The notes under the pieces: generated by a model
Told to the model about the DNA's origin: nothing
The model's database searches: none
What the model saw: only the letters and a program-made list of their open reading frames with translations
Part shown: piece after piece, positions 1-46,162 of the stretch
How the letters are laid out: each line of letters begins with the position of its first letter
Position numbering within the stretch: the stretch's first letter is position 1
DNA from: Candidatus Staskawiczbacteria bacterium
GTDB lineage: Bacteria; Patescibacteriota; Minisyncoccia; Minisyncoccales; Staskawiczbacteraceae
Assembly: GCA_963778905.1 (NCBI GenBank)
Contig: CAVZWH010000017.1
Span: 76 to 64,075, forward strand
DNA length: 64,000 nucleotides
Reading direction: 5' to 3'
Position numbers and translations under genes: made by a program

Positions 1-225
1 GGTCGCCCTTGTTTATGTTTGCGACGCCACAGTTTTGATAGGCAGTCGCGAAGCCAGGATCGAAGTAGATGGCAGTCTTACAAGCAGACAAGGCTTCGTC
101 AAAGTTGCCCTTGTCGATCTGTGCGGCGCTGAGGTCGGCATAGGCCGCCTCTTTTGTGTTTGCGAAGGGCTTTAGAAAAGTACTCAGATCAGCCGCCTTC
201 TTGAAATCGGCGATTGCGGCATGCC
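1..225 (-). pseudogene. TPR-repeat protein fragment. It has no start codon and runs off the window edge.
   Basis: The minus-strand frame is open from 268 to the window start. It translates to ...FWHAAIADFKKAADL...KEAAYADLSAAQIDKGNFDEALSACKTAIYFDPGFATAYQNCGVANINKGD, a typical 34-aa TPR pattern. There is no ATG/GTG/TTG between the upstream stop (269-271) and the homology. The segment is visibly GC-richer than the rest of the window. Confidence 0.5.
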
Positions 226-871
226 AAAATCCGCAAGACCGCGAGAGAGGTATTGGACATCTGATAGTTTATGGCAAGGAATTGCAAACGAGGGTGGGGT
301 TATGATGAAAAATGGAAAGAAGCCAGAAAGACTTTTGCAGAGGATTTTAGATATTGCAAGTGATAAAAACGACATTATTTTAGATTTTTTTGCAGGGGCA
401 GGAACGACTGGGGCGGTTGCTCACAAAATGGGTAGAAGATATATTTTGATTGAGCAAATGGATTATATCCACGATCTACCAGAACAGAGGTTGATAAATG
501 TTATTAAGGGTGATCAAACAGGAATTTCAAAGGCAGTGGGGTGGAATGGTGGTGGGAGTTTTATTTATACAGAGCTTTTGGAATGGAATCAAAAATATAT
601 CAGCCAACTTGAAAAAGCCAAAACCCAAAAAGAAATTTTAGATATTTATAAAAAGATTGAAAAAGAAAAGTTTTACAAACCCGAATATGAGCCTAAAAAC
701 TTTGATTTAAAAAAATTTCAAGAGCTTGATTTGAAGAAGCAAAAGGAAGTTTTAATTGATATTTTAGATATGAATCATCTTTATGTTAATAAATCCAGTA
801 TGGATGATACTACTTTTAAAGTTAGCGAGAGCGATAAGAAACTAACTACTATGTTTTACAAAGAAAAATAA
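221..871 (+). pseudogene. mod: Type III R-M methyltransferase (Mod), C-terminal fragment only
   Basis: It contains the SAM-binding motif I region KPERLLQRILDIASDKNDIILDFFAGAGTTGAVAHKMGRRYILIEQ, typical of beta-class N6/N4 MTases. It is immediately followed by a Res gene with a 1-nt gap. At 216 aa it is much shorter than typical Mod proteins, and the catalytic (D/N)PPY region and target-recognition domain are absent. Confidence 0.75.
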
Positions 872-872
872 A

Positions 873-3482
873 ATGGAGGAAACAAAGCTATCAGTTGAAT
901 ACAGCTCCCTTGAAAAAAGGAATAAGATTTCAAGGGAAATTCCGACAAGTATTTTAGATAATCTAAATCCTAAATTTGAATTACGAGAATATCAAATTTC
1001 GGCAATTGCAAGATTTATTGAATACTTTGAAAACGAGCAAGAAAAGCCGTTGCCTATACAGTTGCTTTTTAATATGGCGACTGGGAGCGGAAAGACTTTT
1101 TTGATGGTTGCTTTTATGCTTTATCTTTACGAAAAAGGTTATAGGCATTTTGTTTTTTTTGTTGATAAGACAAATATCATTAAAAAAACAATTGATAATT
1201 TTTTAAATAAGAAATCATCAAAATACCTTTTTGCAGATAGAATATTTATTGACGGGGAGGAAATTCTGATTAAGCAGACTGAAAACTTTTCAAAGAATGA
1301 AAGGGAGAATATAAACATTCATTTCAATACCATTAGCGGATTACATAGCAAGTTAAATAGCCCGCAACAGGATTATATGACTTTTGATGATTTCAAGAAA
1401 TATAAGACAGTTTTTATATCTGATGAAGCCCATCATATTAACGCTTTAACAAAAAATAGATTATCAAAATCAGAGGAGGAGGAAAAAAAATCTTGGGAAT
1501 ACACAGCAAACAAATTAGTAAATTCAAGAGAAGATAATGTTTTGCTTGAATTTACAGCCACGATTGATTGGAAAAATCCGCAGATTTTTGATAAATATAA
1601 AGACAAGGTTTTGATGGAGTATGATTTAAAGAAATTTAGAGAAGATAAATTTTCAAAAGATGTTTTCTTATTTCAATCAGACTCTGTAATAACGGAAAGG
1701 ATGTTGCAGGCAGTTATTATCTCCCAATACAGAAGAAAAGTTGCTGAAAAAAATAAAATACCATTGAAGCCAGTGATATTAATGAAATCGGACAAGATAG
1801 ATAAATCAAAGATAAATTATGAGTTATTCGTTGGGTTGATTAAGAATTTAAAAGTAAAAGATATAAAAAATATTAGAAGAGTTGCTGAAAAAGTAAAAGA
1901 AGACGATAATATTTTAAAAAACGCCTTCAAATTTTTTAATGAGCAGAAAATAGATGATTCTGATTTGGTAAAAGAAATAAAAGTTGAGTTCAACGAAGAT
2001 AGGTTGATTGAGGTTAATAGCAAAGATGAGAGCGAGGAAAAACAAGTATTAATAAATAGGCTTGAAGACAGTGATAACGAAATAAGGGTTGTTTTTGCTG
2101 TTGATATGCTGAATGAGGGTTGGGATGTTTTAAATCTGTTTGATATAGTCCGTTTATACGGCACAAGAGACAGTGGAAACCCGACGATACAAGAGGCTCA
2201 ATTAGTAGGGAGAGGGGCGAGATATTTTCCTTTTTATTTGAATAATCCCGACGAGAAATTTATTAGAAAATTTGATGATGAAGCGAATAATGAATTAAGG
2301 GTTGTTGAGCAATTGCATTTCCATAGCATACAAAATCATAGGTATATTTCTGAATTAAGAAAAGCACTTGAAGAGGGCGGAATTATGAGAAAAAGCGGAA
2401 CGGAAAAGAAATTAACAGTTAAGGATTCTTTTAAAAACACAAGGTTTTACAAGAAGGGTGTTTTATGGAAAAACAAAAGAATTATAAATAAAAAAGAAGG
2501 CGTAAAATCAATAAATGAATATATAAACAAAGATAAAACTTATAAACTAAACATTGAGTCATCCGTAAATATAAATATGGTTGCAGGATTTGGGAGGGCG
2601 GTGATACAGCAAAAAAACGAGACGATGGAATTTAAGAAGATCAATGAGCTACCAAAGCACATTGTGAGGAAAGCGTTAGACAGATTTCCATTTTTTAACT
2701 TTGACAATTTGTCTTCCTATTTTCCGCACATAAAATCAATTGACGACTTTATAGCGAACGGAAATTATCTTGGCGGTATTACATTAGAGATTACGGCGTC
2801 CGAGCAGGATCATCCCGCAAATGTTTTATTTCGGAAGCTCATAGGTGCGGTTGAAGCTATTAAGAACGACATAAAGGCAAATTCATCAAAATATAAAGGC
2901 ACAAAAGAGTTTGAATCTATTTTAGTCAAAGAAACTGTTATAGATAAAGAATTAATAATAAGCGAGCCGAAGCAAGGATCAATGCAGGAGAGGGGGCTTT
3001 CTATGAGTTCAGCACAATCTTCAACGGGCTTAGCAACTGGTATTCCGCTTAATTTAGCAAACGAGGATTGGTATGTTTATAGTGATGACTATGGAACTGA
3101 TGAGGAAAAATATTTGGTAAGATTTATTTACGATATTAAAGGCAAGTTGCTAAAATCCTTTAAAGAAGTTTATTTAATAAGGAATCAAAAACTTTTGGAA
3201 TTATTTAGCTTTAAAAGGGGAGATCGGTTTGAGCCAGATTATATTTTAATGCTTGGCGATGGCAAGACAAAAGCGGTTTATTTACAGCTATTTATTGAGG
3301 CGAAGGGGCAACAATTAGAGGCAGTAGACGAATGGAAGCAGGAATTTTTATTAGAAATTAAAGAGCAGAAACAGATAGTTAATCTGTTTGAGGATGATAA
3401 ATACAAAATTTTAGGATTACCATTTTTTCAAGAAAATCAAAAAGCTAATTTCAAGGATAAATTAGAAGAAATATTGACTTGA
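873..3482 (+). CDS. res: Type III restriction enzyme Res subunit (SF2 helicase-nuclease)
   Basis: It has a Walker A motif (NMATGSGKTF), a DEAH-type motif II (FISDEAHHINA) and helicase C motifs (VDMLNEGWDV, QLVGRGAR). It is 869 aa and adjacent to the Mod fragment. Confidence 0.85.
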   Translation: MEETKLSVEYSSLEKRNKISREIPTSILDNLNPKFELREYQISAIARFIEYFENEQEKPLPIQLLFNMATGSGKTFLMVAFMLYLYEKGYRHFVFFVDKTNIIKKTIDNFLNKKSSKYLFADRIFIDGEEILIKQTENFSKNERENINIHFNTISGLHSKLNSPQQDYMTFDDFKKYKTVFISDEAHHINALTKNRLSKSEEEEKKSWEYTANKLVNSREDNVLLEFTATIDWKNPQIFDKYKDKVLMEYDLKKFREDKFSKDVFLFQSDSVITERMLQAVIISQYRRKVAEKNKIPLKPVILMKSDKIDKSKINYELFVGLIKNLKVKDIKNIRRVAEKVKEDDNILKNAFKFFNEQKIDDSDLVKEIKVEFNEDRLIEVNSKDESEEKQVLINRLEDSDNEIRVVFAVDMLNEGWDVLNLFDIVRLYGTRDSGNPTIQEAQLVGRGARYFPFYLNNPDEKFIRKFDDEANNELRVVEQLHFHSIQNHRYISELRKALEEGGIMRKSGTEKKLTVKDSFKNTRFYKKGVLWKNKRIINKKEGVKSINEYINKDKTYKLNIESSVNINMVAGFGRAVIQQKNETMEFKKINELPKHIVRKALDRFPFFNFDNLSSYFPHIKSIDDFIANGNYLGGITLEITASEQDHPANVLFRKLIGAVEAIKNDIKANSSKYKGTKEFESILVKETVIDKELIISEPKQGSMQERGLSMSSAQSSTGLATGIPLNLANEDWYVYSDDYGTDEEKYLVRFIYDIKGKLLKSFKEVYLIRNQKLLELFSFKRGDRFEPDYILMLGDGKTKAVYLQLFIEAKGQQLEAVDEWKQEFLLEIKEQKQIVNLFEDDKYKILGLPFFQENQKANFKDKLEEILT

Positions 3483-3549
3483 TAGCATTTTGATTTTTTG
3501 GTAATGTTAGATTATAAGATAAATACAAATAATTTTTAAATTAAATAAT

Positions 3550-3816
3550 ATGGCTATTACAAGAATACCATCTGCCGATCCACAAAATCCTAATCCGACA
3601 GAACTCTCATTAACCTTTAATAATGGTGATTTTATGGCGTTAAGAGATACTGCCAGAAGATTAGGATTTACAAGTGAAGAGGCTATGATTCGTTTTGCAT
3701 TGGCGGTCTTGTCTCAATCGGCAACAACATCTCTGACTATAATAAATATGAATGGTGCTAAAATTAGTTTGAATCCGTCAGAAGGGTTGTTGAGACTCAA
3801 TAATCCTCCCACATAA
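3550..3816 (+). CDS. Hypothetical small protein (possible ribbon-helix-helix-like)
   Basis: This is an 88-aa ORF in the same orientation as res. The segment ALRDTARRLGFTSEEAMIRFALAVL resembles RHH/CopG helices. The call is weak. Confidence 0.35.
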   Translation: MAITRIPSADPQNPNPTELSLTFNNGDFMALRDTARRLGFTSEEAMIRFALAVLSQSATTSLTIINMNGAKISLNPSEGLLRLNNPPT

Positions 3817-3819
3817 TAT

Positions 3820-4200
3820 ATGCCAAAGGAAAACATAAAAACAGATTTTAATGTGGAGGAGATTACAAAAACCACCGAGCAACACGAAAAAAGTATTTCT
3901 GAATTTAATACTCGCATTTCTGATTTAGAAAATAAACTATCTAATCCCGAGCAATTGGCAAATGTCATTGAAACTGCTACAAAAGATTCAAAAAAACTTG
4001 ATAAGATTTTTTCTTCTATATTTTGTGAGATGATAAATAAAGATGAAGATGTTAAAAATGCAATTAAAGGAAGAATAGATAATATTGATCGGGGAGCTGT
4101 ATTTTCAATTCTAAAAAAATGGGGAGAATTTGTTTATGCTGTGATACTTATAACTATTGGAGCTATAATTACACTTGTTATTTCAAGATTTTCAAAATAA
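3820..4200 (+). CDS. Hypothetical coiled-coil protein with a C-terminal TM helix
   Basis: It is 126 aa. A hydrophobic stretch (FVYAVILITIGAIITLVI) lies at the C-terminus. It starts 4 nt after the previous ORF. Confidence 0.4.
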   Translation: MPKENIKTDFNVEEITKTTEQHEKSISEFNTRISDLENKLSNPEQLANVIETATKDSKKLDKIFSSIFCEMINKDEDVKNAIKGRIDNIDRGAVFSILKKWGEFVYAVILITIGAIITLVISRFSK

Positions 4201-4292
4201 AGAAGCATTTTAAAATACGCCTTTAAAGCGTTTTTTTGCTGAAAATGGTAATCTAAAATAATAGATTCTAAAAAAGTAATGAAAAAAGTAAA

Positions 4293-5072
4293 ATGGATAA
4301 AGAGGTAGAACTAAAAGACGGAAGAAAAATTAAGACGACTTGCTCAACCAAAGGACAGGAAAAACTTTTTAATTATTATGTGGAAATATCTAAAACAGAT
4401 TATTTTCAAAACACGATATTAGATTTAAGAAAAAGATATAAAATACCAGAGATGGGTTTTAAATTACCAGACACATCTGATCTTTTATCAATTTTCAAAG
4501 AACCCGAAGATTGGAAGAATCAATTCAATAAGACAAAAGACAGTGCTACTAAACAATATTCCGAACTGTTGGGGGAGCTAAAACAGCTATGCAAAAAATA
4601 TAATTTGCATTATGCTGACTGGATGTATATTTTAAATGCTTATTTGTTTTATAATGTATTGATAAATTTTATATCCCCAAATATGTTTAATATGTGTCAG
4701 ATAAACGATTTGGCGAAAGAAAAAAAAGAACCGCCCGCCTTAGATAATATAATAAGCAACGACCAATTTTATCCGATTGCGTTAAGGATAAGTCCATACG
4801 CCACTAAGAGGGATATTTTGGACTATGTTAATAAAAGATTTTCATTGATTAAGAAATATCAAGAACCTTATATAAAAACAGATGTTAAAATTGGGAAAAT
4901 AAAAAAGAAAAAAAAGAAAATACAGGAAAGAAATGATTTTATTTACGAAAATAAGAATTTGAGTATAAGTGAAACCAAAAAACTGGTTGAAGAGAAGTTT
5001 GGCGAGAGTTTGGATTATGAGTATATCGGCAAGATACGATCCGATGAAATGCAAAAGCGAAAAGAACTGTAA
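4293..5072 (+). CDS. Hypothetical protein
   Basis: It is 259 aa and Lys-rich, with no motif I recognise. Confidence 0.4.
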   Translation: MDKEVELKDGRKIKTTCSTKGQEKLFNYYVEISKTDYFQNTILDLRKRYKIPEMGFKLPDTSDLLSIFKEPEDWKNQFNKTKDSATKQYSELLGELKQLCKKYNLHYADWMYILNAYLFYNVLINFISPNMFNMCQINDLAKEKKEPPALDNIISNDQFYPIALRISPYATKRDILDYVNKRFSLIKKYQEPYIKTDVKIGKIKKKKKKIQERNDFIYENKNLSISETKKLVEEKFGESLDYEYIGKIRSDEMQKRKEL

Positions 5073-5674
5073 TACAGAAATTTTCCGAAGCACATAAAAA
5101 TCCTTATACAGGAAAGTGAAAAAGAATTAGCCTGAAATAAACAGGCTTTTTGCTTACAGAAAAGCCAGCAATGGCGGATGATAACAGAAGAAACACTAAT
5201 AAACCCAAAAGTTAGAGAAGCTCCCAATGTGAGCCGTGCTTTGATTACTAAAAAAGATAAGAAGAAAAAAACAAAATTAAAGCTTAATAGCTGGGTATAT
5301 ACGCCAGATGAAAAAAGATTTGGTTTGGCATTGGAGTTTTTGGCAAGAGATTTCAATGCAGGGCGTGGGAGTAAATAATCAAATGATTGTTTGTTTTTAC
5401 AATTGTTGTCGGAAAAAGGGGTAATTTAGGTGGGGTAGTTTATTTACTATGGATTATGTGCTATAATTAAAGCGTTAAGGTTAATCAATTCAGCAAGAGG
5501 ATTTTATTTGTATAATCAAATAGAATACTAAGAGGGGCTGGAAGTTGGTTAACCTTAACAATTAACCTTTTGCTTTCCAGTCCCTTTTAGTATGTAAAAA
5601 AATTAACAGCAAATTTATAGGTTTTAAAGTTTTACTGGTTAATCCTTTGGAATTTATCAATTTGCAAAAATGTA

Positions 5675-6199
5675 ATGAAAGTAGCAATATATTGCAGAGT
5701 TAGCACAAACGAGCAAAATTTGGATAATCAGACATTAGAATTAAAAGATTATTGCAAAAGAAATAATTATGAGATAGCGGGGGAGTATTGCGATAAAATT
5801 TCGGGAACGAAAACCAGCAGACCAGAATTAGATAAAATGTTGCAGGATATGAGAAATAAGAATTTCCAGGCGGTTATAGTTTGGAAGTTTGACAGACTTG
5901 GAAGAAGCACGGCTCATTTATTGCAGGTTTTAGAGGAATTGAAGAATAGAAAAATCCGCTTAATTGCCACATCACAAAATATTGATACAGATACCGCTAT
6001 GGGCAAATTCTTTTTTACGATTCTTTCGGGCTTTGCAGAAATGGAAAGGGAAATTATAAAAGAAAGAATAAATTTGGGTTTGTTAAGAGCGAAAAAGGAA
6101 GGAAAAAAATTAGGACGCCCATTTGGATCAAGGGATATAAAATACAGAAAAAAATCGGGCTATTTGTTAAGATGGCAAAAAGAAAAAGTTTTAAACTAA
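5675..6199 (+). CDS. Small serine recombinase (resolvase/invertase family)
   Basis: The N-terminal catalytic region MKVAIYCRVSTNEQNLDNQ matches the family. It also has VWKFDRLGRS and a C-terminal GRPFGS segment. Confidence 0.85.
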   Translation: MKVAIYCRVSTNEQNLDNQTLELKDYCKRNNYEIAGEYCDKISGTKTSRPELDKMLQDMRNKNFQAVIVWKFDRLGRSTAHLLQVLEELKNRKIRLIATSQNIDTDTAMGKFFFTILSGFAEMEREIIKERINLGLLRAKKEGKKLGRPFGSRDIKYRKKSGYLLRWQKEKVLN

Positions 6200-6203
6200 A
6201 AAT

Positions 6204-7715
6204 ATGAAAGTTTCTATATATGCCAGAGTTAGCTCTGACCAGCAAAAAGAAAAAGAAACAATAAACTCCCAATTAGCAGAATTAAGGGATATTTGCCAAA
6301 GAAAGAATGATACAATCGTAAAAGAGTATATTGACGATGGATGGAGCGGTGAAACATTAGCCAGACCAGGATTAGACGAATTAAGGGATGACGCCGATAG
6401 GGGTATTTGGAATGTTTTGTATATTCTTTGCCCAGACAGGCTCGGCAGAGATCATATTGATCAAGGTATTGTTTTAAGGGAGTTAAAAAAGCGGGGAGTG
6501 CAAGTTGTTTTTAAGGACGCCCCGCTTACAGAAGATAATAAGTTGCAGAAGGATATTGAGAGCTTATTGGGAGAATACGAAAATAAGCAACGCAGAGAAA
6601 GAACCAGAAGGGGAAAATTACATCACGCCAAAGAGGGAAAAATAGTGCAATCAATAGCTCCTTTTGGATATAAATTTGAAAGATTAGAAAAAGAAAAAAA
6701 GATTATTATAAATCCAGATGAGGCAAAAATTGTAAGGCTGATTTTTGAATTGTATTTACAACATCAAAGCACAATGAAAGTCGGGGAAGAACTTTTGACA
6801 AGGGAAATTAAAACAAGGTTTGGGAACGAATTTACTCCCAAAAAAGTTTCAAAAGTTTTAGCCGAAAATACATACACGGGTATTTGGCATTATGGAATGC
6901 GTGAAAATGTTGAGCCGAAGACCAGAAAGAAGAAATTTTATAAGCATTTAAAAACGGGCTATAAATTTAAAAATGACTGGATAAAATATGAAATTCCGAT
7001 AATTATTGATACTGCTACATTTGAGCGAGTGCAGGAATTAAGGAAAAAACGCTATCGTCTGTATGGCAATACTAAGTTTTATTATATGGTTGCAGGCTTA
7101 TTGCAGGGCAGTTGCGGTGAAAAAATGCACGGACAGGGATTTACATCTCACGGCATTTACAAATATGGTTATTATGTCTGCTACAAGTGCCACAAAAGAA
7201 TAAATAGGGAGGAATTTGATGATTTTATATGGGAGGAAGTAAAAAAGGCAATTCAGAATCCAAAAACGCTGATGAAATATGTTTCGCACCTTAATGATAA
7301 TAGCGGGGCAGAACCGCTTAATGCTTTGAGGGGAGAGCTTTTGCTAAAATTGAAACATACAGAGCAGAAAAGCACCGAGCTTTGGCAGATTTGGGATAAG
7401 GGAGGAATTGATAGGGATATTCTAACTAAAAAAATATCAGAATACGCCCAAAAAGAGAAGAATTTTAAAAAAGAAATCCAGGATGTTGAGATGAGGTTGC
7501 AACAAACGGGAAAAAAGGATATAATATACAATACATTAAAGTCCTTTTCAAGAACGGCTGGAACGCAGTTAGACCGATGGAATAAAGAACAAAGGAAAGA
7601 TTTTTTGAAGCTTATACTAAATTACATAACCTATAACCACGAAACGGGAGCAGTTGATATTGATGGTATAGTGCCAGGTAGGGAGATAGACTTATTAAAT
7701 TTAAATTTGAAACCT
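6204..7715 (+). CDS. Large serine recombinase (about 504 aa). It has no stop codon of its own, and the ORF continues in frame into greA.
   Basis: The N-terminal region MKVSIYARVSSDQQKEKETINSQ matches, as does PDRLGRD. The recombinase domain is followed by a Cys-rich zinc-ribbon region (CGEKMHG...YYVCYKCHKR) and a coiled coil. The ORF-track entry 6204..8168 has no stop before the greA ATG at 7716. Confidence 0.85.
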
Positions 7716-8168
7716 ATGGTTCAATATTTTACAAAAGAAGGACTGCAAAAACTTAAGGATGAGTTGCATGAATTAAAGACAACCAAAAATAAAGAAATTG
7801 TTAAGCTAATTGCTGAAGCAGCTGCTTTTGGAGACCTAAAAGAAAATTCTGCGTATCACGACGCAAGAGACAAAATGTCTTTTTTGAGGATGAGAATTAA
7901 GGAATTGGAAGGAGCAATTAATGAGGCAATGGTTAAAGAAAAAGATGGAACAAATAAAATTCAAATTGGTTCGGAAATTAAAATTTTGTTTGATGGAGAA
8001 GAACAAAATTATCAGGTTGTAGCTCCAAGCGAAGCGGATATTTTGAAAAATAAAATTTCTTATCATTCGCCGTTAGGACAGAATTTAATTGGCAGAGAAG
8101 TTGGAAAAGAATTTGATTTTATGGCGGGAAATAAAAAAGTAAAAGTGAAAATTTTAGAGATAAAATAG
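7716..8168 (+). CDS. greA: Transcription elongation factor GreA (full length, 150 aa)
   Basis: MVQYFTKEGLQKLKDELHELK...FGDLKENSAYHDARDK...SPLGQNLIGREVG aligns end to end with canonical GreA by eye. Confidence 0.9.
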   Translation: MVQYFTKEGLQKLKDELHELKTTKNKEIVKLIAEAAAFGDLKENSAYHDARDKMSFLRMRIKELEGAINEAMVKEKDGTNKIQIGSEIKILFDGEEQNYQVVAPSEADILKNKISYHSPLGQNLIGREVGKEFDFMAGNKKVKVKILEIK

Positions 8169-8238
8169 GGCCCGTGGTATAGTGGCAACACATCTCGTTT
8201 GCAACGAGAAGCTGGGAGTTCGATTCTCCCCGGGTCCA
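8168..8238 (+). tRNA. tRNA-Ala (anticodon UGC)
   Basis: It folds as a cloverleaf. The acceptor is GGGCCCG/CGGGTCC with the G3:U70 Ala identity pair. The anticodon stem is TCTCG/CGAGA with loop TTTGCAA, and the T-arm is GGGAG-TTCGATT-CTCCC. No CCA is encoded. The first base overlaps the greA stop codon. Confidence 0.85.
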
Positions 8239-8388
8239 CTTTCATAATTTTAATCCAAAATTTTGGATTAAAATTAGAAATAGGTTCGGGTGAGATTGAG
8301 AACTCCCAGGCCCCGAATTGCGAGCCCGCTTGCAAGCGGGCGAGGCAATGCCTTCGGGCAACTCAGTGAGATTCTCCCCGGGTCCACT
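8222..8388 (+). repeat. A 19-bp perfect direct repeat of the tRNA-Ala 3' end (8222-8240 and 8370-8388) brackets a 129-bp GC-rich hairpin-rich spacer
   Basis: GATTCTCCCCGGGTCCACT occurs twice. The second copy lacks a 5' T-stem partner, so it is not a second tRNA. Confidence 0.8.
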
Positions 8389-8399
8389 AATCAAAAAAA

Positions 8400-8807
8400 A
8401 TGCCAAAAATATTGTCAGGTTTTAAAAATTTTATATTGCGAGGAAATGCAGTTGACTTAGCGGTTGGAGTTGTGATTGGAGCTTCGTTTGGAACAGTTGT
8501 AACTGCATTGGTAAAAGATTTGCTTACTCCGTTTATAGGAGCTATTGCAAAAGTGCCAGATTTTTCCGGACTAAGTTTTACATTAAACGGCAGTATATTT
8601 AAATATGGCGAGCTGATAAATGCTTTAATATCATTTTTCCTGGTTGCAGTCGCCATTTATTTTTTTGTAATATTACCAATGAATGCTTTATTGGCCAGAA
8701 CAACAAAGCCAAAAGCAGTCACAGCAAAAAAATGTCCCGAATGCCTTAGTGAAATTCCTGTTGATGCAAAACGTTGCGCCCATTGCGGGCAAGTAGTTGT
8801 AAAATAA
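8400..8807 (+). CDS. mscL: Large-conductance mechanosensitive channel MscL with a C-terminal CxxC...CxxC zinc-ribbon tail
   Basis: FKNFILRGNAVDLAVGVVIGASFGTVVTALVKDLLTPFIG matches the MscL N-terminus and TM1. The tail is KKCPECLSEIPVDAKRCAHCG. Confidence 0.85.
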   Translation: MPKILSGFKNFILRGNAVDLAVGVVIGASFGTVVTALVKDLLTPFIGAIAKVPDFSGLSFTLNGSIFKYGELINALISFFLVAVAIYFFVILPMNALLARTTKPKAVTAKKCPECLSEIPVDAKRCAHCGQVVVK

Positions 8808-13277: not shown

Positions 13278-13326
13278 ATAGGCAGTTATTTGACCCGTCC
13301 TTTGACAACAAATTAAGGAGATAAAC

Positions 13327-14409
13327 GTGGAAACCTCAAGAATTAAGAAAATTGGCTGGGGGTTGGGCGTGTGCAACATGAATTGCAGACATTGCTACAA
13401 TCGTTCCGGGGATGAAAATTCTGTGCCGAGATATACACTCGGTCAGCTCATTGATGTTGCAGACAAAATATGTCCACACATTAGGGACATTAACTTTGGT
13501 AGCGGTGAATTTGTATGCAACCCAAACGCAATTGAGTTGGCGCATTACATTACCGATAAGTATCCGCATATTGATTTGGCGGTGACTTCAAGCGGTTACA
13601 CTATTGTAAAGATGGATCCTATCGACATCAAGCGAAGACTAAGCGATGTCGATGTGTCTATCGATTTTCCAGACGCCGAACGGCACAATGCGTTCCGCCG
13701 ACACCCGCAGGCATGGGAATGGGCTATACGAGCACTGGAAATTCTGAATGAAGTCAGAAAGCAGAGAACTGTAACTATGTGTGTTACCAGCCAAGTATCA
13801 AATGATGATCTTGTCGGTATGCTGAAATTGGCAGACCGCTACGGGGCATGTCTAAGACTGAATTGGTACCGCCATACTGGCAGAGGTCCGAAATCTTTGC
13901 GCTTGTCTGCGAGACGCGCATGGGAAATAGTCGAATTTTTGTCAGACAAAGCGGTGTTCAGTTGTCTAGATTCTGTTTTTGCAGGTCCTTTAGGCGTGAG
14001 GTCAAAGCCTTGCCCCGGAGCGCGATTTTCAGCGCGAATTCATCAGGACATGAGCGTTACCGCATATCCATTTCTGCAAGGAGATGAATGGTCGGCGGGA
14101 AACATTCTTGATCCTGAAATTGATCTGGCTAAAATTTACAACTCTTCGGCTTTCAAAAAGTTGAGGAGCAGAAAAGTCCCGTACTGCGAAGGATGTAAAT
14201 TTAGTGCATCTTGTGCGGGCGGATGCATTACACGCGCAATACTGCACAACGGAGGAATCGCTAAAGTTGATGACTATTGCCCTATTCGTTACAAGCAAAT
14301 GGCAACAGTTGAAAAGGTTCAGCAAAAAATCGTTGTGCATAAGCACGGCAACTTGGTGCACGAAGGTTATTTGTGCACTACCATCATGAAACCACATTCC
14401 GGCATTTAG
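13327..14409 (+). CDS. Radical SAM protein with a C-terminal SPASM/twitch-like Cys cluster
   Basis: It has the CX3CX2C motif GVCNMNCRHCYN, followed by GSGEF. The C-terminal Cys cluster is YCEGCKFSASCAGGCITRA...DDYCP. It has a GTG start and elevated GC. Confidence 0.8.
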   Translation: METSRIKKIGWGLGVCNMNCRHCYNRSGDENSVPRYTLGQLIDVADKICPHIRDINFGSGEFVCNPNAIELAHYITDKYPHIDLAVTSSGYTIVKMDPIDIKRRLSDVDVSIDFPDAERHNAFRRHPQAWEWAIRALEILNEVRKQRTVTMCVTSQVSNDDLVGMLKLADRYGACLRLNWYRHTGRGPKSLRLSARRAWEIVEFLSDKAVFSCLDSVFAGPLGVRSKPCPGARFSARIHQDMSVTAYPFLQGDEWSAGNILDPEIDLAKIYNSSAFKKLRSRKVPYCEGCKFSASCAGGCITRAILHNGGIAKVDDYCPIRYKQMATVEKVQQKIVVHKHGNLVHEGYLCTTIMKPHSGI

Positions 14410-14428
14410 CCGAGAAAGGAGGCCTTGA

Positions 14429-15067
14429 ATGAAAGCATTTCACATCAGCTTTGAGGGCACTAATGGTGCCGGCAAGTCAACGCAAGCAAAGATACTTGTA
14501 AAGCATCTTTGCGACTACGGCGTCCCCACAAAGTATGTCAAAAATCCGAATGGAACAGCGTTCAGCAAGTTGGTTATGGATGCGATTCTTGCTCAATCGC
14601 CACACAAATTGGCAGAAATTCTTGCCTTTGCGGCTTGCTTTTGCCAAACGGCCAATGAATTGGTTGTGCCTTTTATGAAAAGAGGCACCTGTGTTGTGTC
14701 TGACCGGGGCATAGGCTCAGCCTATGCCCACGCTTTATACCGATGCAAAGGAGCTATTAACGAGGATTTGTTCACTCAGATAATAACGGAAATAAACAAA
14801 GATAATGTTTTATTTCCCGATTTGACCTTTCTGCTCTCACTTCCCATCGAATTGGGAGTTGCAAGAAAGAAAGGGTCTGCGAGCAAAAACAGATTAGATG
14901 CTCTTACGCCAGATAGCGCCCGGGAAGCTCTTGCTTATGAAAAATTGAGCAAGAAATTTCCAAATTGGATAACCATAAGCGCCAATGGTAGCATCGACAA
15001 AATCTCCAAAAGGATTTGGACAGAAACAGCTAAACTTATAAGGAGGTGCGCAAATGAACAGCACTAA
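14429..15067 (+). CDS. Thymidylate kinase-like P-loop nucleotide kinase
   Basis: It has the P-loop ISFEGTNGAGKSTQAKIL, the DR motif VVSDRGIGSAYAH and a LID-like segment RKKGSASKNRLD. At 212 aa its length is typical of Tmk. Confidence 0.75.
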   Translation: MKAFHISFEGTNGAGKSTQAKILVKHLCDYGVPTKYVKNPNGTAFSKLVMDAILAQSPHKLAEILAFAACFCQTANELVVPFMKRGTCVVSDRGIGSAYAHALYRCKGAINEDLFTQIITEINKDNVLFPDLTFLLSLPIELGVARKKGSASKNRLDALTPDSAREALAYEKLSKKFPNWITISANGSIDKISKRIWTETAKLIRRCANEQH

Positions 15068-16613
15068 GATAGTGTTGGCAACTCCGCCGACAATTTCTCA
15101 GCGCACAGCTGAAGAAACGCTTGCCATTGAATATCTGGCATCTGCGTTGCGTAATGCCGGATATGAAGTCGTAATAATCGATGCATGGCTCAGAGGCATT
15201 GACTGCCAAAAAGCCGTGGACCTGATGTTTGAAGACGGCAATCCTTCTGTAATTTGCATGTCTTGCTACCGCTCCAACCTCGATCAGGCGAGTGAATTGA
15301 TAAGACGCGCAAAAGACAGGGCAGAAAATGTCCTGACCGTGTGCGGAGGGTTCGGGCCGACATTTCATGATGAAGAATTTTTGGAAGTTGGTTTCGACGT
15401 TGCTGTTCGCGGAGAAGCCGAGGGGCTTCTTGCGGATCTGATTGCCAAAATGTTGGCCAAGAATAGTCTTTTTGACTTTCCTAGCGTCAGTTTTCTGTCG
15501 GGCGGCAAAATATTTCGGACGGAAAGAAAAGAACCAATCATTGAATTGGAAACTATTTTTTTTCCGGCTAGAGACGAGATGCCGTATGTAATCAGGAGAA
15601 AAAATCCTGTTCACATTTGCACGTCGCGAGGTTGCAACGGCAGTTGTTCTTTTTGTTCTGTAGCCGCTTTTAATCATGGTGTGACTAGAAAGCGCTGGCG
15701 TGGCAGATCTATCGGAAACATAGTCGATGAAATCAGGGAAATTCACGAAAGGTTTGGGACAACCCATTTCAAGTTTGTCGACGATAGCTTTCTTGAACCG
15801 CCAAGAGACGAAAATTGGGCAATCGATTTCGCAAGTGCCCTTAAGGGGGCGGGGCTCAATATTCGTTTCAGAACGCAGGTTCGCGCTGACCGTCTCACAG
15901 ATTCCATTGTGGAAAGTCTGGCAAGTTGTGGCTTGTTTGCCACTAACGTAGGTGTAGAGAATTTTTCCAACTCTGCCCTGTCCCGAATGCGAAAACCATC
16001 GCGTTCAACTGACAATATCAGGGCAATGGGTCTTCTGCGCAAATATAATGTGTACACACAAATCGGCTTGATCATGTTTGATAATATGACAACCATTGAT
16101 GAGTTGTCGGAAAATTATCAGGCGTTACTCAGGTATCCCTGGGTGATTATTAAGGGAGTGTTCACTGAAATGTTTGCGGCAGAGGGAACTGCTTTTACAC
16201 AAGGTTTGAAAGGTACTCATTTGCTGAGTGGTGGCGGCAAAAACCAGAACTATGGCTATGCGATACAAGATGCGCAGGCGCGCAGAGTGTATTCAATGCT
16301 GAAGGTCTGGCACAAGTATCACGCTCCGCTGTATGACCAGGTGATTGATCCTTTGACCGCTCCAAAGATTATGTCTGATGGCGGATACGAGGAAGTTCAC
16401 CGGTTGTGCGCAAACCTTCTTGCGCTTGACGTGAGATTCTTTGGAAAAACTCTTTCGCAGATTGCAAAGGGTGTATCTGATGATGCAGAAATGACGGAAG
16501 CTGAAATCCGTCTGACTGCAGGCGCCCACGAAAGCATAAGAGAAAAAATAAATAATGTCTACGCCAGAGAAGGCTTGACTTACGATGGTGAGTTCAATCC
16601 TTTTCTTGCATAA
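15054..16613 (+). CDS. B12-binding-domain radical SAM protein (class B-like)
   Basis: The N-terminal Rossmann-like region (IVLATPP...LAIEYLASALRNAGYEVVIIDAW) resembles cobalamin-binding domains. The radical-SAM motif is CTSRGCNGSCSFCSV. It overlaps the kinase gene by 14 nt. Confidence 0.8.
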   Translation: MNSTKIVLATPPTISQRTAEETLAIEYLASALRNAGYEVVIIDAWLRGIDCQKAVDLMFEDGNPSVICMSCYRSNLDQASELIRRAKDRAENVLTVCGGFGPTFHDEEFLEVGFDVAVRGEAEGLLADLIAKMLAKNSLFDFPSVSFLSGGKIFRTERKEPIIELETIFFPARDEMPYVIRRKNPVHICTSRGCNGSCSFCSVAAFNHGVTRKRWRGRSIGNIVDEIREIHERFGTTHFKFVDDSFLEPPRDENWAIDFASALKGAGLNIRFRTQVRADRLTDSIVESLASCGLFATNVGVENFSNSALSRMRKPSRSTDNIRAMGLLRKYNVYTQIGLIMFDNMTTIDELSENYQALLRYPWVIIKGVFTEMFAAEGTAFTQGLKGTHLLSGGGKNQNYGYAIQDAQARRVYSMLKVWHKYHAPLYDQVIDPLTAPKIMSDGGYEEVHRLCANLLALDVRFFGKTLSQIAKGVSDDAEMTEAEIRLTAGAHESIREKINNVYAREGLTYDGEFNPFLA

Positions 16614-16616
16614 GAC

Positions 16617-16646
16617 AAGCGAGCTATGGATAGCTCGCTTTTTTTA
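16617..16646 (+). terminator. Rho-independent terminator
   Basis: A 10-bp stem AAGCGAGCTA/TAGCTCGCTT with loop TGGA is followed by a T-run. Confidence 0.8.
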
Positions 16647-16709
16647 ATATAAAAATTTGCTTTAACTCGCGTAATATCATATTATAAAAAAATAGCTTAT
16701 AATAAATTT

Positions 16710-17066
16710 ATGAATGACAATTTAAAAAATTATGCAACTGCATTTGTGGGTAAGATTGTAAAAATAAAAATTGACAGACCACTTGGTTCAAAGCATCCAA
16801 AACACGACATGATTTATGAAGTAAATTATGGTTTTGTGCCGGATACAAAAGCTCCAGATGGGGAAGAGATAGATGCTTATTTATTGGGAGTTGATAAACC
16901 TCTAGATGAATTTACCGGAAAATGCATAGCTGTAATACACAGATTAGACGATAATGATGATAAACTAATAATTATTCCTGAAAACTCTGAAAACATAAGC
17001 GATGAAGAAATACTTGGATTGATCAACTTCCAAGAAAAATGGTTTAAGTCAGAAATAATTAGGTAA
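16710..17066 (+). CDS. Short inorganic pyrophosphatase-like protein
   Basis: KIDRPLGSKHPKH...VNYGFVPDTKAPDGEEIDAYLLG...VIHRLDDNDDKLII resembles the YGF(I/V)P...DG(D/E)..D core of family I PPases. At 118 aa it is shorter than canonical enzymes. Confidence 0.55.
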   Translation: MNDNLKNYATAFVGKIVKIKIDRPLGSKHPKHDMIYEVNYGFVPDTKAPDGEEIDAYLLGVDKPLDEFTGKCIAVIHRLDDNDDKLIIIPENSENISDEEILGLINFQEKWFKSEIIR

Positions 17067-17145
17067 AAAATATATAAGGATTTTTTTCAAACAAAAGAAA
17101 CCTTTGTGGCAATTCTCATAAAGGTTTTTTGTTAAAAAGTTCAAA

Positions 17146-17174
17146 TTGACATATCAGATTAAATACAGTATAGT
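17146..17174 (+). promoter_or_regulatory. Sigma70-type promoter (TTGACA, 17-nt spacer, TATAGT)
   Basis: TTGACA lies at 17146-17151 and TATAGT at 17169-17174, with the RBS AGGAGA upstream of the ATG at 17248. Confidence 0.5.
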
Positions 17175-17247
17175 GAGTATCGGTATTGTAACTTGACAAC
17201 TCGTACAAACGTTTGAAAGATTTGAACAATCTTCAGGAGATATAACC

Positions 17248-18546
17248 ATGGAAAACGAGTGTTACCTGGGGATAGATTTTGGAACATCGAATTCGTCGGT
17301 CGCGTTGTTGCCTAAAGGAGAATCAAGTACGTTCCCCGTCGGGGAGGCGACTGTTTTGCCTTTAGGAAAAAACGGATCAATGATAATCCCGTCATTTCTT
17401 TTTTTTCCCCAAGAAGGAGGAAAATATTATCTCGGGGATGAGGCGATTGAGCATTATCTGAGTGATAACGCGCAAGGGCGCTTTATGCAGTCAATCAAAA
17501 CATTACTTCCCGATACTACTTTTGCCAGTACCACTATCAGTGGATGGGGACGCTACACGACCGAAGATTTGGTTTTTTGCATTCTGTCAGCAATCAAGCA
17601 CCGACTTGAGTTGATCGTCGATCAGAATGTTGCCGGAGTCGTGTTGGGTCGGCCGGCTATTTTTTCCGAAAATGATGATGAAGAAAAAATAGCGGAACAA
17701 CGCTTGCTGAAAGCGGCAAAGCGAGTCGGTTTCGAACGCGTCCGTTTTCAGCGCGAACCTATCGCCGCGGCTTTAACCTACAAACACTCACTTAGTAAAC
17801 CGGAATTGGTGTTTGTGGGAGACTTTGGTGGTGGTACCAGCGATTTTACGGCTATGCGCTTATCGCCCCATAGTGTCGGTAACATCGATTCTGATGATGA
17901 TATTCTGGCCGTCAACGGCATATCAATCGCCGGCGATACCTTTAACAGCGCGATTATGCGACATCAACTACTCAAGTATTTTGGCTACGATGCTCATTAC
18001 AAGGTCCATGGCGAAACAAAATGGCTGGATGTTCCGACGGCAATTCACTATGAACTTTGTGAATGGCACAAAATTTCTTTTCTAAAGGGTGGCCGATACC
18101 TTGCTCTAATTGGAAAGATGATTCATCAATCCGATGACAAGCAGGGGTTTATGAGACTGCAGGCGTTGGTTGAAGAAAATCTCGGGTATCCGCTGTTTCA
18201 GAGTATTCAGGAAGCAAAGTGTATCCTATCATCTGATCAAACCTCACGGGTTAAGTTCAATCGCTCGATTATCAACATCGATGAAGAAATCACCCGAAAG
18301 AGCTTTGAAGAGATGATAGAAGAGTACATCGAAAAACTTGGGTTGTGTATCGATAGGACGTTATCGACAGCCGATATTAATGCCAGAGACGTGGATGCAG
18401 TATTCCTGACAGGCGGAACTTCACAGACGCCGAGAGTCCGTCGATTAATGGCAGAAAAATTCGGCGAAGAAAAACTTCGATCAGGAGATGCTTTCACTAG
18501 CGTTGCTGAAGGACTTGCCCTTAGCGCTCCCTATCTGTTCAAATAA
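17248..18546 (+). CDS. Hsp70/actin-fold ATPase lacking a substrate-binding domain (YegD-like)
   Basis: It has the phosphate-1 motif LGIDFGTSNSSVA and the phosphate-2 motif VGDFGGGTSDFT, plus VFLTGGTSQTPRVR. At 432 aa it comprises the nucleotide-binding domain only. Its GC is clearly higher than the flanks. Confidence 0.8.
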   Translation: MENECYLGIDFGTSNSSVALLPKGESSTFPVGEATVLPLGKNGSMIIPSFLFFPQEGGKYYLGDEAIEHYLSDNAQGRFMQSIKTLLPDTTFASTTISGWGRYTTEDLVFCILSAIKHRLELIVDQNVAGVVLGRPAIFSENDDEEKIAEQRLLKAAKRVGFERVRFQREPIAAALTYKHSLSKPELVFVGDFGGGTSDFTAMRLSPHSVGNIDSDDDILAVNGISIAGDTFNSAIMRHQLLKYFGYDAHYKVHGETKWLDVPTAIHYELCEWHKISFLKGGRYLALIGKMIHQSDDKQGFMRLQALVEENLGYPLFQSIQEAKCILSSDQTSRVKFNRSIINIDEEITRKSFEEMIEEYIEKLGLCIDRTLSTADINARDVDAVFLTGGTSQTPRVRRLMAEKFGEEKLRSGDAFTSVAEGLALSAPYLFK

Positions 18547-18560
18547 TAAAACGTTCTTCC

Positions 18561-18596
18561 ATCCCCACATCGATCAATAGATGTGGGGATTTTTTA
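18561..18596 (+). terminator. Rho-independent terminator
   Basis: An 11-bp perfect stem ATCCCCACATC/GATGTGGGGAT is followed by a T5 run. Confidence 0.85.
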
Positions 18597-18660
18597 TTAT
18601 CGTTATGGGTTATTGCATTTTTATTTTTAAAAAGGCAGAATAAGATAATAAGATAAAAAT

Positions 18661-29439: not shown

Positions 29440-30531
29440 ATGCCAAATAAATCTTTAAACCAAAACTTACATAAAGCGAACCAGGCAAAAAAAGATGAGT
29501 TTTACACTCAGCTTATTGATATAGAAAAAGAGCTTAAACATTATAAGGAACAGTTCCGTGGCAAGATTGTTTATTGCAATTGCGACGATCCGTTTGAGAG
29601 TAATTTTTTTAAGTATTTTGCCGCCAACTTTAAGGAATTGAAATTGAAGAAATTGATTGCCACAAGCTATTCCGGCTCGCCAATTATTGGAGGACAATTG
29701 TCGTTACTCGAGATAAAAGGATCAAAAGGTAAGCAGCCGCTTAAGATTGAAATTAGCGAAGTGCCAGACGCCAACAAGGATGGCGCCATTGATCTTACAG
29801 ACGTAAAATCGCTGCTGAAAAACAACGCTAATATTGCTACGCCCCTAAAGGGTGCGGGCGATTTTCGCAGTAATGAATGTGTTGAGTTATTAAAACAGGC
29901 CGACATAGTTGTCACTAATCCGCCATTTTCGCTCTTTCGCGAATATGTCGCGCAGTTAGTCGAGCATAAAAAGAAGTTTATAATTCTTGGCGATCAGAAT
30001 GCAATTACATATAAAGAATTTTTTAAATTGATAAAAGATAATAAATTGTGGCTTGGCTATGATAATGGTGGGACAAAATGGTTCCAAGTTCCGATGGATT
30101 ACGACATACCAACAGAATCAAGAAAGAAAATTGAGAATGGGGTGCAATATTTTAGCATGGGCCGAATAATGTGGTTTACAAACTTAGACACCACAAAAAG
30201 ACACGAAGAACTGACTTTATATAAAAAATATAGTCCGGAAGAATACCCAAAATATGATAATTATGATGCGATTGAAGTTCCTAGGGTTTTAGATATTCCG
30301 ATGGATTATAAAGGATCTATTGGAGTTCCAATTACGTTTGTTGATAAATATAATCCTAATCAGTTTGAGATTATTGGATTGCTTGCTGATAAGCGTGAAA
30401 TATCAGATGCGCTTATACAGGGTGTTCCTACTTATCTTGATGAACAACATAAAAAATATGTTGGCGCTATTGTAAATCGTAAAGCAACTTATGCACGAAT
30501 TATTATTAAAAATAAGAAAGTGAAAAAATAG
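29440..30531 (+). CDS. M.EcoRI-family N6-adenine DNA methyltransferase
   Basis: There is strong collinear similarity, recalled from memory, to M.EcoRI: LHKANQAKKDEFYTQ, KIVYCNCDDPFESNFFKYFAANF, GDFRSNE and DIVVTNPPFSLFREY. Confidence 0.8.
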   Translation: MPNKSLNQNLHKANQAKKDEFYTQLIDIEKELKHYKEQFRGKIVYCNCDDPFESNFFKYFAANFKELKLKKLIATSYSGSPIIGGQLSLLEIKGSKGKQPLKIEISEVPDANKDGAIDLTDVKSLLKNNANIATPLKGAGDFRSNECVELLKQADIVVTNPPFSLFREYVAQLVEHKKKFIILGDQNAITYKEFFKLIKDNKLWLGYDNGGTKWFQVPMDYDIPTESRKKIENGVQYFSMGRIMWFTNLDTTKRHEELTLYKKYSPEEYPKYDNYDAIEVPRVLDIPMDYKGSIGVPITFVDKYNPNQFEIIGLLADKREISDALIQGVPTYLDEQHKKYVGAIVNRKATYARIIIKNKKVKK

Positions 30532-35627: not shown

Positions 35628-35836
35628 AAGATAGGAAAATTTAGAAATTAGTGATAAAGTAAAATTAACAATTTAATAATGGGCCTAAACTCATAGCTTG
35701 CTGTGAGCATGGCAAAAAATCGTTCAACATAGAGATCCCGTCATTCGGGGGTCGTGTTGAACGTTATGCAGGGAAACTTGCATAGGGTCGCAAGATCCAC
35801 CCCAGTGGCGGGTTTTGTGTTTATAAAAATAAATTT

Positions 35837-38256: not shown

Positions 38257-38344
38257 TGTTTTTTTATTTGATAAGTAATTATACATAAGCTTGCATAAAA
38301 ATCAGCAAACGTTATACTAAATCTACAATTTAAAGTTGTATTAA

Positions 38345-38445
38345 GAGTGCGAAGAGGGAATTGGCCCTATGACTCGCCAGCAACCTGCAAATGCAAGGTG
38401 CTACATCCAACCAGACACGAAAGTGTCGGGAAAGATAAGCTCACG
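38345..38445 (+). ncRNA. SAM-I (S-box)-like riboswitch aptamer
   Basis: GAAGAGGGAAUUGGCCCUAUGACUCGCCAGCAACC...AAGGUGCUACAUCCAACC...AGAUAAG matches the conserved SAM-I core blocks (GAGGGA.UGGCCC.AUGA..C.GCAACC, GGUGCUAA.UCC, AGAUAAG) in the right order. I could not find a convincing P1 5' strand. An intrinsic terminator follows. Confidence 0.5.
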
Positions 38446-45823: not shown

Positions 45824-46162
45824 ATTTTAACCCTATACCATGCCAGAACCCATGTCAAATATTTCCCCGACCCGATAAACCTGGCGACTCATCCCGCTAC
45901 CCGATTTTTGCGGTTTATGCTAACATAAAAATACAACTAAATATTTCCGCCTAACCCCATAGATTTCTATGGGTATGGCACAAAAATCCTAGACAATAAA
46001 GATGGTCTTCTGACCAGTGCTTATTGTCTAGGTCTATATTCGAAAGAGTATAGGGTGATTCCGAAAGGAGTTGCCACTGCGTCGGGAGACCTTTTTTGTT
46101 TCTCGCAAAACTGCTTTTGCAAACATTTATTATTAAAAATTATTATTAAAATTAAAATAAAT

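Follow-up and report, generated by a model that had tools for sequence, protein, structure and literature searches.

The window analysed here is a 64,000-nucleotide stretch of contig CAVZWH010000017.1 (assembly GCA_963778905.1) from a Candidatus Staskawiczbacteria bacterium. Near its start, the gene of a large serine recombinase (LSR) continues in a single open reading frame (ORF) into greA. The features of this locus are as follows.

6204..8168, + strand: composite LSR-GreA ORF (ORF listing, Pfam, identical product on a Logan contig)
6204..7696, + strand: LSR body, element-encoded, amino acids (aa) 1 to about 498 (Pfam; alignment with 14 homologues)
7497..7525, + strand: TTGCAA-17-TATAAT, best sigma-70-like site on this strand and candidate internal promoter (10/12 match)
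7689..7730, no strand: putative attR region, the element-host junction (homologous to a 36-nt block in loci L011 and L013; limits of LSR and greA homology)
7697..7715, + strand: probable host-derived greA leader, read as ...NLNLKP in the long ORF (near-match in locus L022)
7716..8168, + strand: intact greA, 150 aa plus stop (Pfam N- and C-terminal domains; length and N-terminus as in relatives)
8168-8239, + strand: tRNA-Ala(TGC), a conserved greA neighbour (ARAGORN, Rfam)

The ORF starts with ATG and encodes 654 aa, composed of the LSR, six leader codons and GreA. Pfam assigned a Resolvase domain to aa 5-146 (E 4.6e-26), a Recombinase domain to aa 171-283 (E 1.5e-16), GreA_GreB_N (PF03449) to aa 508-577 (E 7.8e-22) and the C-terminal GreA_GreB domain (PF01272) to aa 583-654 (E 1.7e-19). 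The LSR frame is uninterrupted over 504 codons, stop codons are absent from the LSR body through to the greA ATG at 7716, and the predicted junction peptide is EIDLLNLNLKPMVQYFTK. A first-pass annotation had described this arrangement, with a full-length GreA in frame from the ATG at 7716, no stop before it, and a tRNA-Ala starting on the last base of the greA TAG stop. The ORF, its Pfam domains, the N-terminus of the relatives and the ARAGORN and Rfam predictions confirm each of these points. Logan contig L004 (run ERR11523660) corresponds to window positions 5082-8274 with five mismatches, none of which is close to the junction, and it encodes an identical 654-aa product, which gives partial assembly-level support for the junction.

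The 150-aa GreA part matched hundreds of relatives at 70-90% identity, which belong to Staskawiczbacteria or Patescibacteria where named. Because nearly all of the 120 closest matches listed (85-90% identity) are 150 aa long and start with MVQYFTKEGLQKLKDELH, the greA moiety is judged to be complete from its native start codon. It has the N-terminal coiled-coil domain with a conserved acidic tip (GDLKEN), the C-terminal globular domain and the full length of a GreA protein.

The recombinase moiety has a resolvase-type catalytic domain with the serine nucleophile (PF00239) and the Recombinase domain (PF07508). In an alignment with 14 homologues, Y6, R8 and S10 (YARVSS), R61, D62, R79, R82 and other residues are invariant. 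The LSR had been called complete-looking, and its catalytic and recombinase domains bear this out; the zinc ribbon is a weaker match (Zn_ribbon_recom, PF13408, aa 298-346), with an E value of 0.001 and 19.8 bits against a gathering score of 25.3. C304 and C326 of this putative ribbon are conserved in the alignment. Conservation fades at about aa 492, after the ...ITYN..G.IP.. motif (window aa ~478-492). Because the variable tails of the homologues extend 10-25 aa past P504 of the window protein, the window LSR appears to keep the whole conserved body without a tail or a stop of its own.

The closest LSR homologue among the matches listed is P0001 (525 aa, 56% identity), which was found in small phage-like contigs with primase-polymerase (prim-pol) and terminase genes. 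The gene order there is a small resolvase, a 118-aa ORF and the LSR. Two of its contigs, L001 and L002, stop 2 nt past the LSR stop codon, while L003 runs on into an intact uppS gene whose ATG lies 11 nt further; the L003 genes that lie past P0001 had no PHROG matches, and uppS may be either a host or a phage gene. P0009 and P0011 lie at the right end of terminase-containing regions, where the LSR stop overlaps the ATG of the next gene (TAATG), and the stop of P0005 is 13 nt from the next ATG, so that the next gene begins 0-13 nt past the stop of these homologues. A Logan contig with P0009 ends 14 nt past the LSR stop, and L012 is among the contigs ending 2-14 nt past it. A scan of genome contigs with the LSR, in which the window genome is absent from the species representatives, found only distant LSRs (28-50% identity), and an IMG/VR scan with the LSR alignment found only relatives at 31% identity or less. 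No greA was present nearby at the 18 other LSR loci examined.

The first-pass annotation had proposed a comparison with genomes lacking the insertion, and such empty sites were found: about 85 related greA loci keep the greA-tRNA-ychF synteny, and the order downstream of greA is the same as in the window (tRNA, (mscL), ychF, an rluA-like gene and a mechanosensitive channel gene). The tRNA is located 3' of greA on the + strand in L006 and L008, and just downstream on the opposite strand in L005. Upstream of greA, these three loci have 16S rRNA, a tRNA or a terminator. An LSR upstream of greA was found neither in them nor in 80 further metagenomic greA loci. Because the related loci share the synteny without an upstream LSR, the LSR at greA is best read as an insertion.

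The place of the junction is suggested by two LSR loci, L011 and L013, which are ~78% identical in the LSR 3' region and ~90% identical in the downstream gene. A 36-nt block within the LSR tail (9535-9570 in L011/L013; GGAACTAATGAAGCTACCTATACCAACCTTTGACT, codons ELMKLPIPTFD) is perfectly conserved between them and is a candidate core of the attachment (att) site inside the LSR ORF. This block corresponds by homology to window positions 7689-7730, a stretch that spans the greA ATG. Because this perfect block occupies tail codons, the att site probably lies within the 3' end of the LSR ORF, at 7689-7730.

The insertion had earlier been placed exactly at the 5' boundary of greA, with the att site at the 3' end of the integrase gene. 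The empty sites, the edge positions of the LSR genes and the 36-nt block agree with an element end that abuts this boundary and with the position of the att site. The word "exactly" is too strong, because the crossover may be ~20 nt upstream of the ATG or in the first greA codons. The greA homology with relatives begins at about -2; this boundary was rejected as a marker of the crossover because the upstream regions are unalignable even among empty sites. The 18-mer at 7697-7714 (AAATTTAAATTTGAAACC) has a single match at two or fewer mismatches (16/18) in 318 kb of related loci, searched on both strands. This match ends 5 nt before the greA ATG of L022, a locus with a TTGAAA-17-TATATT promoter 34 nt upstream, and it stands at about the 99.9th percentile per 70-nt chunk of a local-alignment null distribution. 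In L049 and L097, TGATAAATTGAAAC precedes the greA ATG, and TAAATT and GAAAC are common with the window. A crossover ~20 nt upstream of the ATG is slightly favoured on this comparison, and one inside the first greA codons is a possible but lesser candidate. Under either position, the junction falls within 7689-7730.

Insertion at this place would have consequences for the transcription of greA. Among 73 non-redundant relatives, 31 have a promoter matching at 9/12 positions or more whose -10 element ends 3-9 nt before the greA ATG (mode 5-7); shuffled sequences have 2.3 such loci on average and 8 at most. The typical native promoter is cTTGAAAA-17-TAGAAT/TATAAT and occurs in many Patescibacteria lineages. 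Because the -10 element ends so close to the ATG, the greA mRNA is predicted to be leaderless or near-leaderless in this clade, with a minority such as L022 having a leader of ~30 nt. In the window, the best match before greA is TAGGGA-17-TAAATT (7/12), in which the -35 element is lost and the -10-like TAAATT (7702-7707) lies 8 nt before the ATG. These comparisons support the earlier proposal that the native greA promoter has been displaced.

Within the 3' part of the LSR gene, the 7497-7525 site precedes the greA ATG by 190 nt. It overlaps codons that are conserved (L-x-Q...D-I-I) and has positional counterparts in L003, L011 and L013; a 17-nt perfect block in L011/L013 covers the TATAAT-containing stretch ~230 nt before the stop, matching this site. 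The count of promoter-like sites in 5300-8500 is no higher than in shuffles. The site may be a functional promoter or a by-product of coding. As first reported, no Shine-Dalgarno (SD)-like motif is present before the ATG at 7716. Its absence was rejected as an argument and has no distinctive value, because only 6 of the 57 window genes have such a motif, three of them in one GC-rich patch. The 100 nt around the greA AUG (7666-7765) are weakly structured (-10.5 kcal/mol, z = +0.98).

We consider it reasonably probable that an integrative element inserted site-specifically at the 5' boundary of greA and that the in-frame read-through is accidental. The host would be a Staskawiczbacteria-like Patescibacterium, and the element, of at least 7.5 kb, would comprise the remnant of a type III restriction-modification system together with a small serine recombinase and the LSR; its recombination module has relatives in small Patescibacteria phages. 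The att site of this LSR clade would lie inside the last 10-30 recombinase codons, so that the LSR ORF ends on the other attP arm in the free form and continues into host DNA in the integrated form. The host side would most likely be a short greA leader (~19 nt) followed by greA, where an open frame in register would yield the 654-aa ORF. The insertion would remove the native promoter immediately upstream of greA, which would then be transcribed from within the element, with read-through of the recombinase operon, the 7497-7525 site and the weak -10 element at 7702-7707 as candidate sources. Because the surroundings of the AUG are weakly structured and the upstream 19 nt are probably native leader, most GreA would be translated on its own as the 150-aa protein, from its own AUG and independently of an SD motif, and any translation of the recombinase would yield some LSR-GreA fusion as a minor by-product.

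The openness of the frame is within chance. Of 77 native greA loci, 32 have an open frame across the seven codons that precede the ATG; with odds of 1/3 for the correct frame, the expected frequency of an in-frame open junction is 1/3 x 0.42 = ~14%, or about one in seven such insertions. A recombinase-GreA fusion was absent from the 120 best LSR matches and the 120 best GreA matches listed, and from the best 150 matches listed for aa 405-654 against 1.84 billion representative proteins. The architecture was also absent from the 80 metagenomic greA loci and the 18 other LSR loci. The fusion thus looks like a singleton, and the same architecture was not found in independent genomes as in a recurrent domain-fusion family. 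The single ORF is most likely an accident, a by-product of the position of the att site, rather than a designed fusion protein. The first-pass idea that the insertion couples greA to a mobile-element gene is speculation in this light, given the apparent singleton and the chance expectation.

Several observations weigh against insertion at the greA boundary with accidental read-through. No same-species empty site was found, as exact look-ups of the window 150-aa GreA and YchF gave no record. Exact searches for attP or other junctions gave no matches either with 7682-7714 in viral contigs or with 7685-7714 in metagenome contigs. A breakpoint at ~240 hides the left end of the island and places attL outside the window, so that the integration is read from one junction. 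The ends of the P0001 contigs fall past the stop codon and outside the tail block, which for that phage does not fit an att site inside the ORF. The match to the L022 leader, with p ~0.01-0.07 after 73 tests (our own estimate from the local-alignment null distribution), is suggestive only. The P0001 tail QPLVQYQEKEPLK resembles the GreA N-terminal KPMVQYFTKEGLQK, and apparent old scars at greA codon 6 occur in some relatives.

The last two observations point to another reading, which we hold as a tentative minority possibility: the crossover would lie inside the first 5-10 greA codons, and attP would carry a mimic of the greA start in the recombinase tail (…KP-MVQY…). Under this reading, every integration at greA would necessarily produce an LSR-GreA ORF in frame, and a pseudo-start would remain at attL, with a predicted attL of promoter, ATGGTNCAATAYTTTAC and element DNA (pseudo-start MVQYFT…). 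At the DNA level, the P0001 tail and the greA start share GTTCAATAT and AAAGAA; this tail is the best match of 120 tails, and the family tail motif P-x-[IV]-[QK]-[TY]-[LF] aligns with P-M-V-Q-Y-F. However, 6/12 identities as in the P0001 tail occur three more times across the 120 LSRs; the similarity was therefore rejected as proof and kept as a point for the mimic. In L006 (380-509), L034 (950-1075) and L051 (1547-1675), the first 17-18 nt of greA (ATGGTACAATAYTTTACA) occur twice, 106-111 bp apart, and L008 has a decayed upstream copy at ~1000-1130. The upstream copy reads MVQYFT and then diverges, and its position is that of the genuine start in other lineages; conservation across lineages covers this copy and the AGCCTTCTAT... 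that comes after it. An old att scar could explain the duplication, as could a leaderless mini-ORF upstream that regulates greA. P0232 has a duplicated GreA N-terminus, which also fits a mimic. The scars in the L006-type loci, however, are unlinked to any LSR. Moreover, the 18-mer match to the native L022 leader argues for host DNA upstream of the ATG, and no copy of the greA 5' end (attL) is present in window 1-6200, although the left end of the element is missing. Three two-mismatch matches to the greA 5' end, at 30141, 36586 and 61116, lie downstream and were put down to chance.

An extended form of the mimic appears doubtful to us. Here, the attP core in the LSR tail codons would mimic the start of a leaderless host gene, and integration would deterministically swap the LSR C-terminus for the host protein, in the manner of the change from IntP to IntX in phage Mx8. 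It would also move the greA promoter and start to attL, reading into the element, and make expression of the only greA element-dependent.

It is improbable, in our judgement, that the LSR-GreA polypeptide is functional, either as the main or only source of GreA or as an integration-dependent form of the recombinase, like the IntX form of Mx8 IntP, in which a changed C-terminus affects activity. Mx8 offers a precedent for a new integrase 3' end formed on integration (PMC6070905). Loss of the native promoter, the absence of a second greA in the 64-kb window, the leaderless-type -10 context of the LSR start and the tolerance of natural GreAs for N-terminal extensions (a DnaJ-GreA protein and ~400-aa forms) would also fit such a role. 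The start context of greA itself is nevertheless intact and accessible, and both the singleton status among matches listed from very large databases and other LSR loci and the one-in-seven expectation argue for an accident. Integrases are usually expressed at a low level in the integrated state, which fits poorly with the role of GreA as a housekeeping factor. An assembly or sequencing artefact, in which a stop or frameshift near 7700 was lost or the LSR and greA were joined in a chimeric contig, might be suspected from the AT-rich, low-complexity junction, the breakpoint at ~220-250 and the GC-rich, SD-using patch at 13.3-18.5 kb, but it is very improbable, because the LSR frame is intact for 504 codons, greA is intact, and the independent Logan contig is identical at the junction while its five differences elsewhere indicate that it is not the same consensus copied.

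The part of the island upstream of the LSR contains the following genes.

221..871, + strand: type III DNA methylase (mod) fragment, 5'-truncated, island cargo (Pfam N6_N4_Mtase)
873..3482, + strand: type III restriction enzyme res subunit (helicase), island cargo (Pfam ResIII, E 1.3e-28)
3820-4200, 4293-5072 and 5178-5378, + strand: three hypothetical island ORFs (no Pfam match above the gathering cut-off)
5675..6199, + strand: small serine recombinase, resolvase/invertase-like, 174 aa (Pfam Resolvase, E 9.9e-49; PHROG DNA invertase/integrase)

The mod fragment matches only positions 140-217 of the 221 positions of the N6_N4_Mtase profile, with the N-terminal two thirds missing. It abuts, head-to-head, an unrelated tetratricopeptide repeat (TPR)-like fragment without a start on the minus strand, and window positions 1 to ~240 have 50-60% GC. 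The breakpoint between them, at ~220-250, resembles what a chimeric join, concatenated contigs or a rearrangement would leave. Among the hypothetical ORFs, 3820-4200 has one weak PHROG match of unknown function, and no PHROG matches were found for 4293-5072 and 5178-5378. An exact look-up of the 259-aa island product found the same sample, ERR11523660, only. The small serine recombinase lies directly 5' of the LSR and has only the catalytic domain by Pfam. It is 70% identical (tblastx) to a 176-aa gene (L001 9108-9638) upstream of P0001, and the pairing of a small recombinase with an LSR thus recurs in the phage carrying the closest LSR. Its function may be accessory, in directionality or in resolution.

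Other observations concern the surroundings of greA. In L067 (1367-2620, minus strand) and L088 (4671-6035, minus strand), a distant LSR with ~22% identity to that of the window lies downstream of greA on the opposite strand, close to the tRNA. The surroundings of greA and its tRNA may repeatedly serve as a target of serine-recombinase elements. The window tRNA-Ala 3' end occurs again as a 24-nt direct repeat (92%; 8217-8240 and 8365-8388, 148 nt downstream), and the spacer at 8236-8392 is highly structured (z = -5.9), containing one long AT hairpin and one GC hairpin. This repeat looks like the scar of another, tRNA-targeting integrative element. The 16S rRNA gene upstream of greA in L005 (1463-4279) spans 2.8 kb compared with a model of ~1.5 kb, which points to large insertions, and the archaeal small-subunit (SSU) model gives its best score. 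In L026, L040, L044, L046 and L056, a conserved hairpin element (GTGATTTATTCG..CTCATAAATC) directly precedes the greA ATG in place of the canonical promoter, and it is tandemly duplicated in L026.

Elsewhere in the window, the region 13300-18600 has 44-47% GC compared with 30-37% in the rest, and the genes at 13327, 14429, 15054 and 17248 in it carry strong AGGAGG-type SD motifs, while the rest is almost SD-free. This patch would be either foreign DNA or a binning or assembly chimera. At 35682-35798, 45948-46075 and 38334-38441, Rfam matched the LOOT RNA twice (82.7 and 79.3 bits) and the SAM-I riboswitch once (63.6 bits).

The locus is best explained as the right junction of an LSR element, where the ORF of a serine integrase would run across its att site and take in a complete host gene, and this would be the new aspect of the case. 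If the layout is general for this LSR clade, the principle that an integrase ORF crosses attP would extend from tyrosine to serine integrases, and att prediction for LSR genome-editing tools should include the 3' coding region. For annotation, the case illustrates that element-host junctions can create spurious fusion proteins in metagenome-assembled genomes. Such fusions are especially likely without SD motifs and with leaderless genes, where gene callers lack anchors for a second start. For the biology of the Candidate Phyla Radiation (CPR), it allows a canonical sigma-70 promoter, set 5-7 nt from the greA start codon, to be compared across relatives, and it adds one natural case of a mobile element replacing the greA promoter. 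The significance would grow if an att site inside the ORF and greA mimicry proved general, or if greA expression were element-dependent.

Elements with LSRs are known within or next to host genes, such as the A118-type phage in comK, SPbeta in spsM, the skin element in sigK and also SCCmec, which sits at the 3' end of rlmH/orfX. The window LSR resembles those of LSR prophages and islands in its resolvase catalytic and recombinase domains with a weak zinc-ribbon match, in the location of the integrase gene at the element edge by the putative att site, and in a conserved housekeeping target. In contrast to the known LSR elements, the insertion is at a 5' boundary that leaves the host gene uninterrupted, the integrase ORF continues in frame without its own stop through a complete host gene, and the host is a Patescibacterium that hardly uses SD motifs. 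The attP of serine integrases is normally just upstream of the integrase gene or just downstream of it (PMC4068962).

Natural GreAs with N-terminal extensions provide a second comparison. In P0311 (DnaJ-GreA, 234 aa) and in P0335, P0336 and P0344 (~400 aa), each the representative of a 50%-identity cluster, the GreA module is C-terminal, as in the window. The last three have a ~260-aa unannotated N-terminal half. These extensions are not recombinases, whereas the LSR-GreA of the window is an apparent singleton at an element-host junction. Because such extended GreAs exist in nature, an LSR-GreA fusion would not necessarily be inactive.

The closest precedents in layout appear to be tyrosine integrases whose ORF crosses attP. 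In the Myxococcus phage Mx8, attP is inside int, and integration creates a new 3' end that changes IntP to IntX (PMC6070905; PMC4383910). In the archaeal integrases of the SSV type, the ORF extends across attP (PMC7253208). The window layout would resemble these in having a putative att site inside the integrase ORF, a position deduced here from homologous loci, with attP itself unrecovered. Because Mx8 and SSV encode tyrosine recombinases and the window a serine recombinase, the likeness is one of layout and not of membership. The outcome also differs: the new tail is short in Mx8 and the gene is split in two in SSV, whereas the new tail in the window is a whole host protein. In the cluster G/P mycobacteriophages, attP lies in the 3' coding region of the repressor gene and integration changes the protein C-terminus (PMC4557955). 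There, the repressor is affected, the integrase is of the tyrosine type and the truncation has a demonstrated regulatory role, whereas in the window a serine integrase ORF would acquire a complete GreA.

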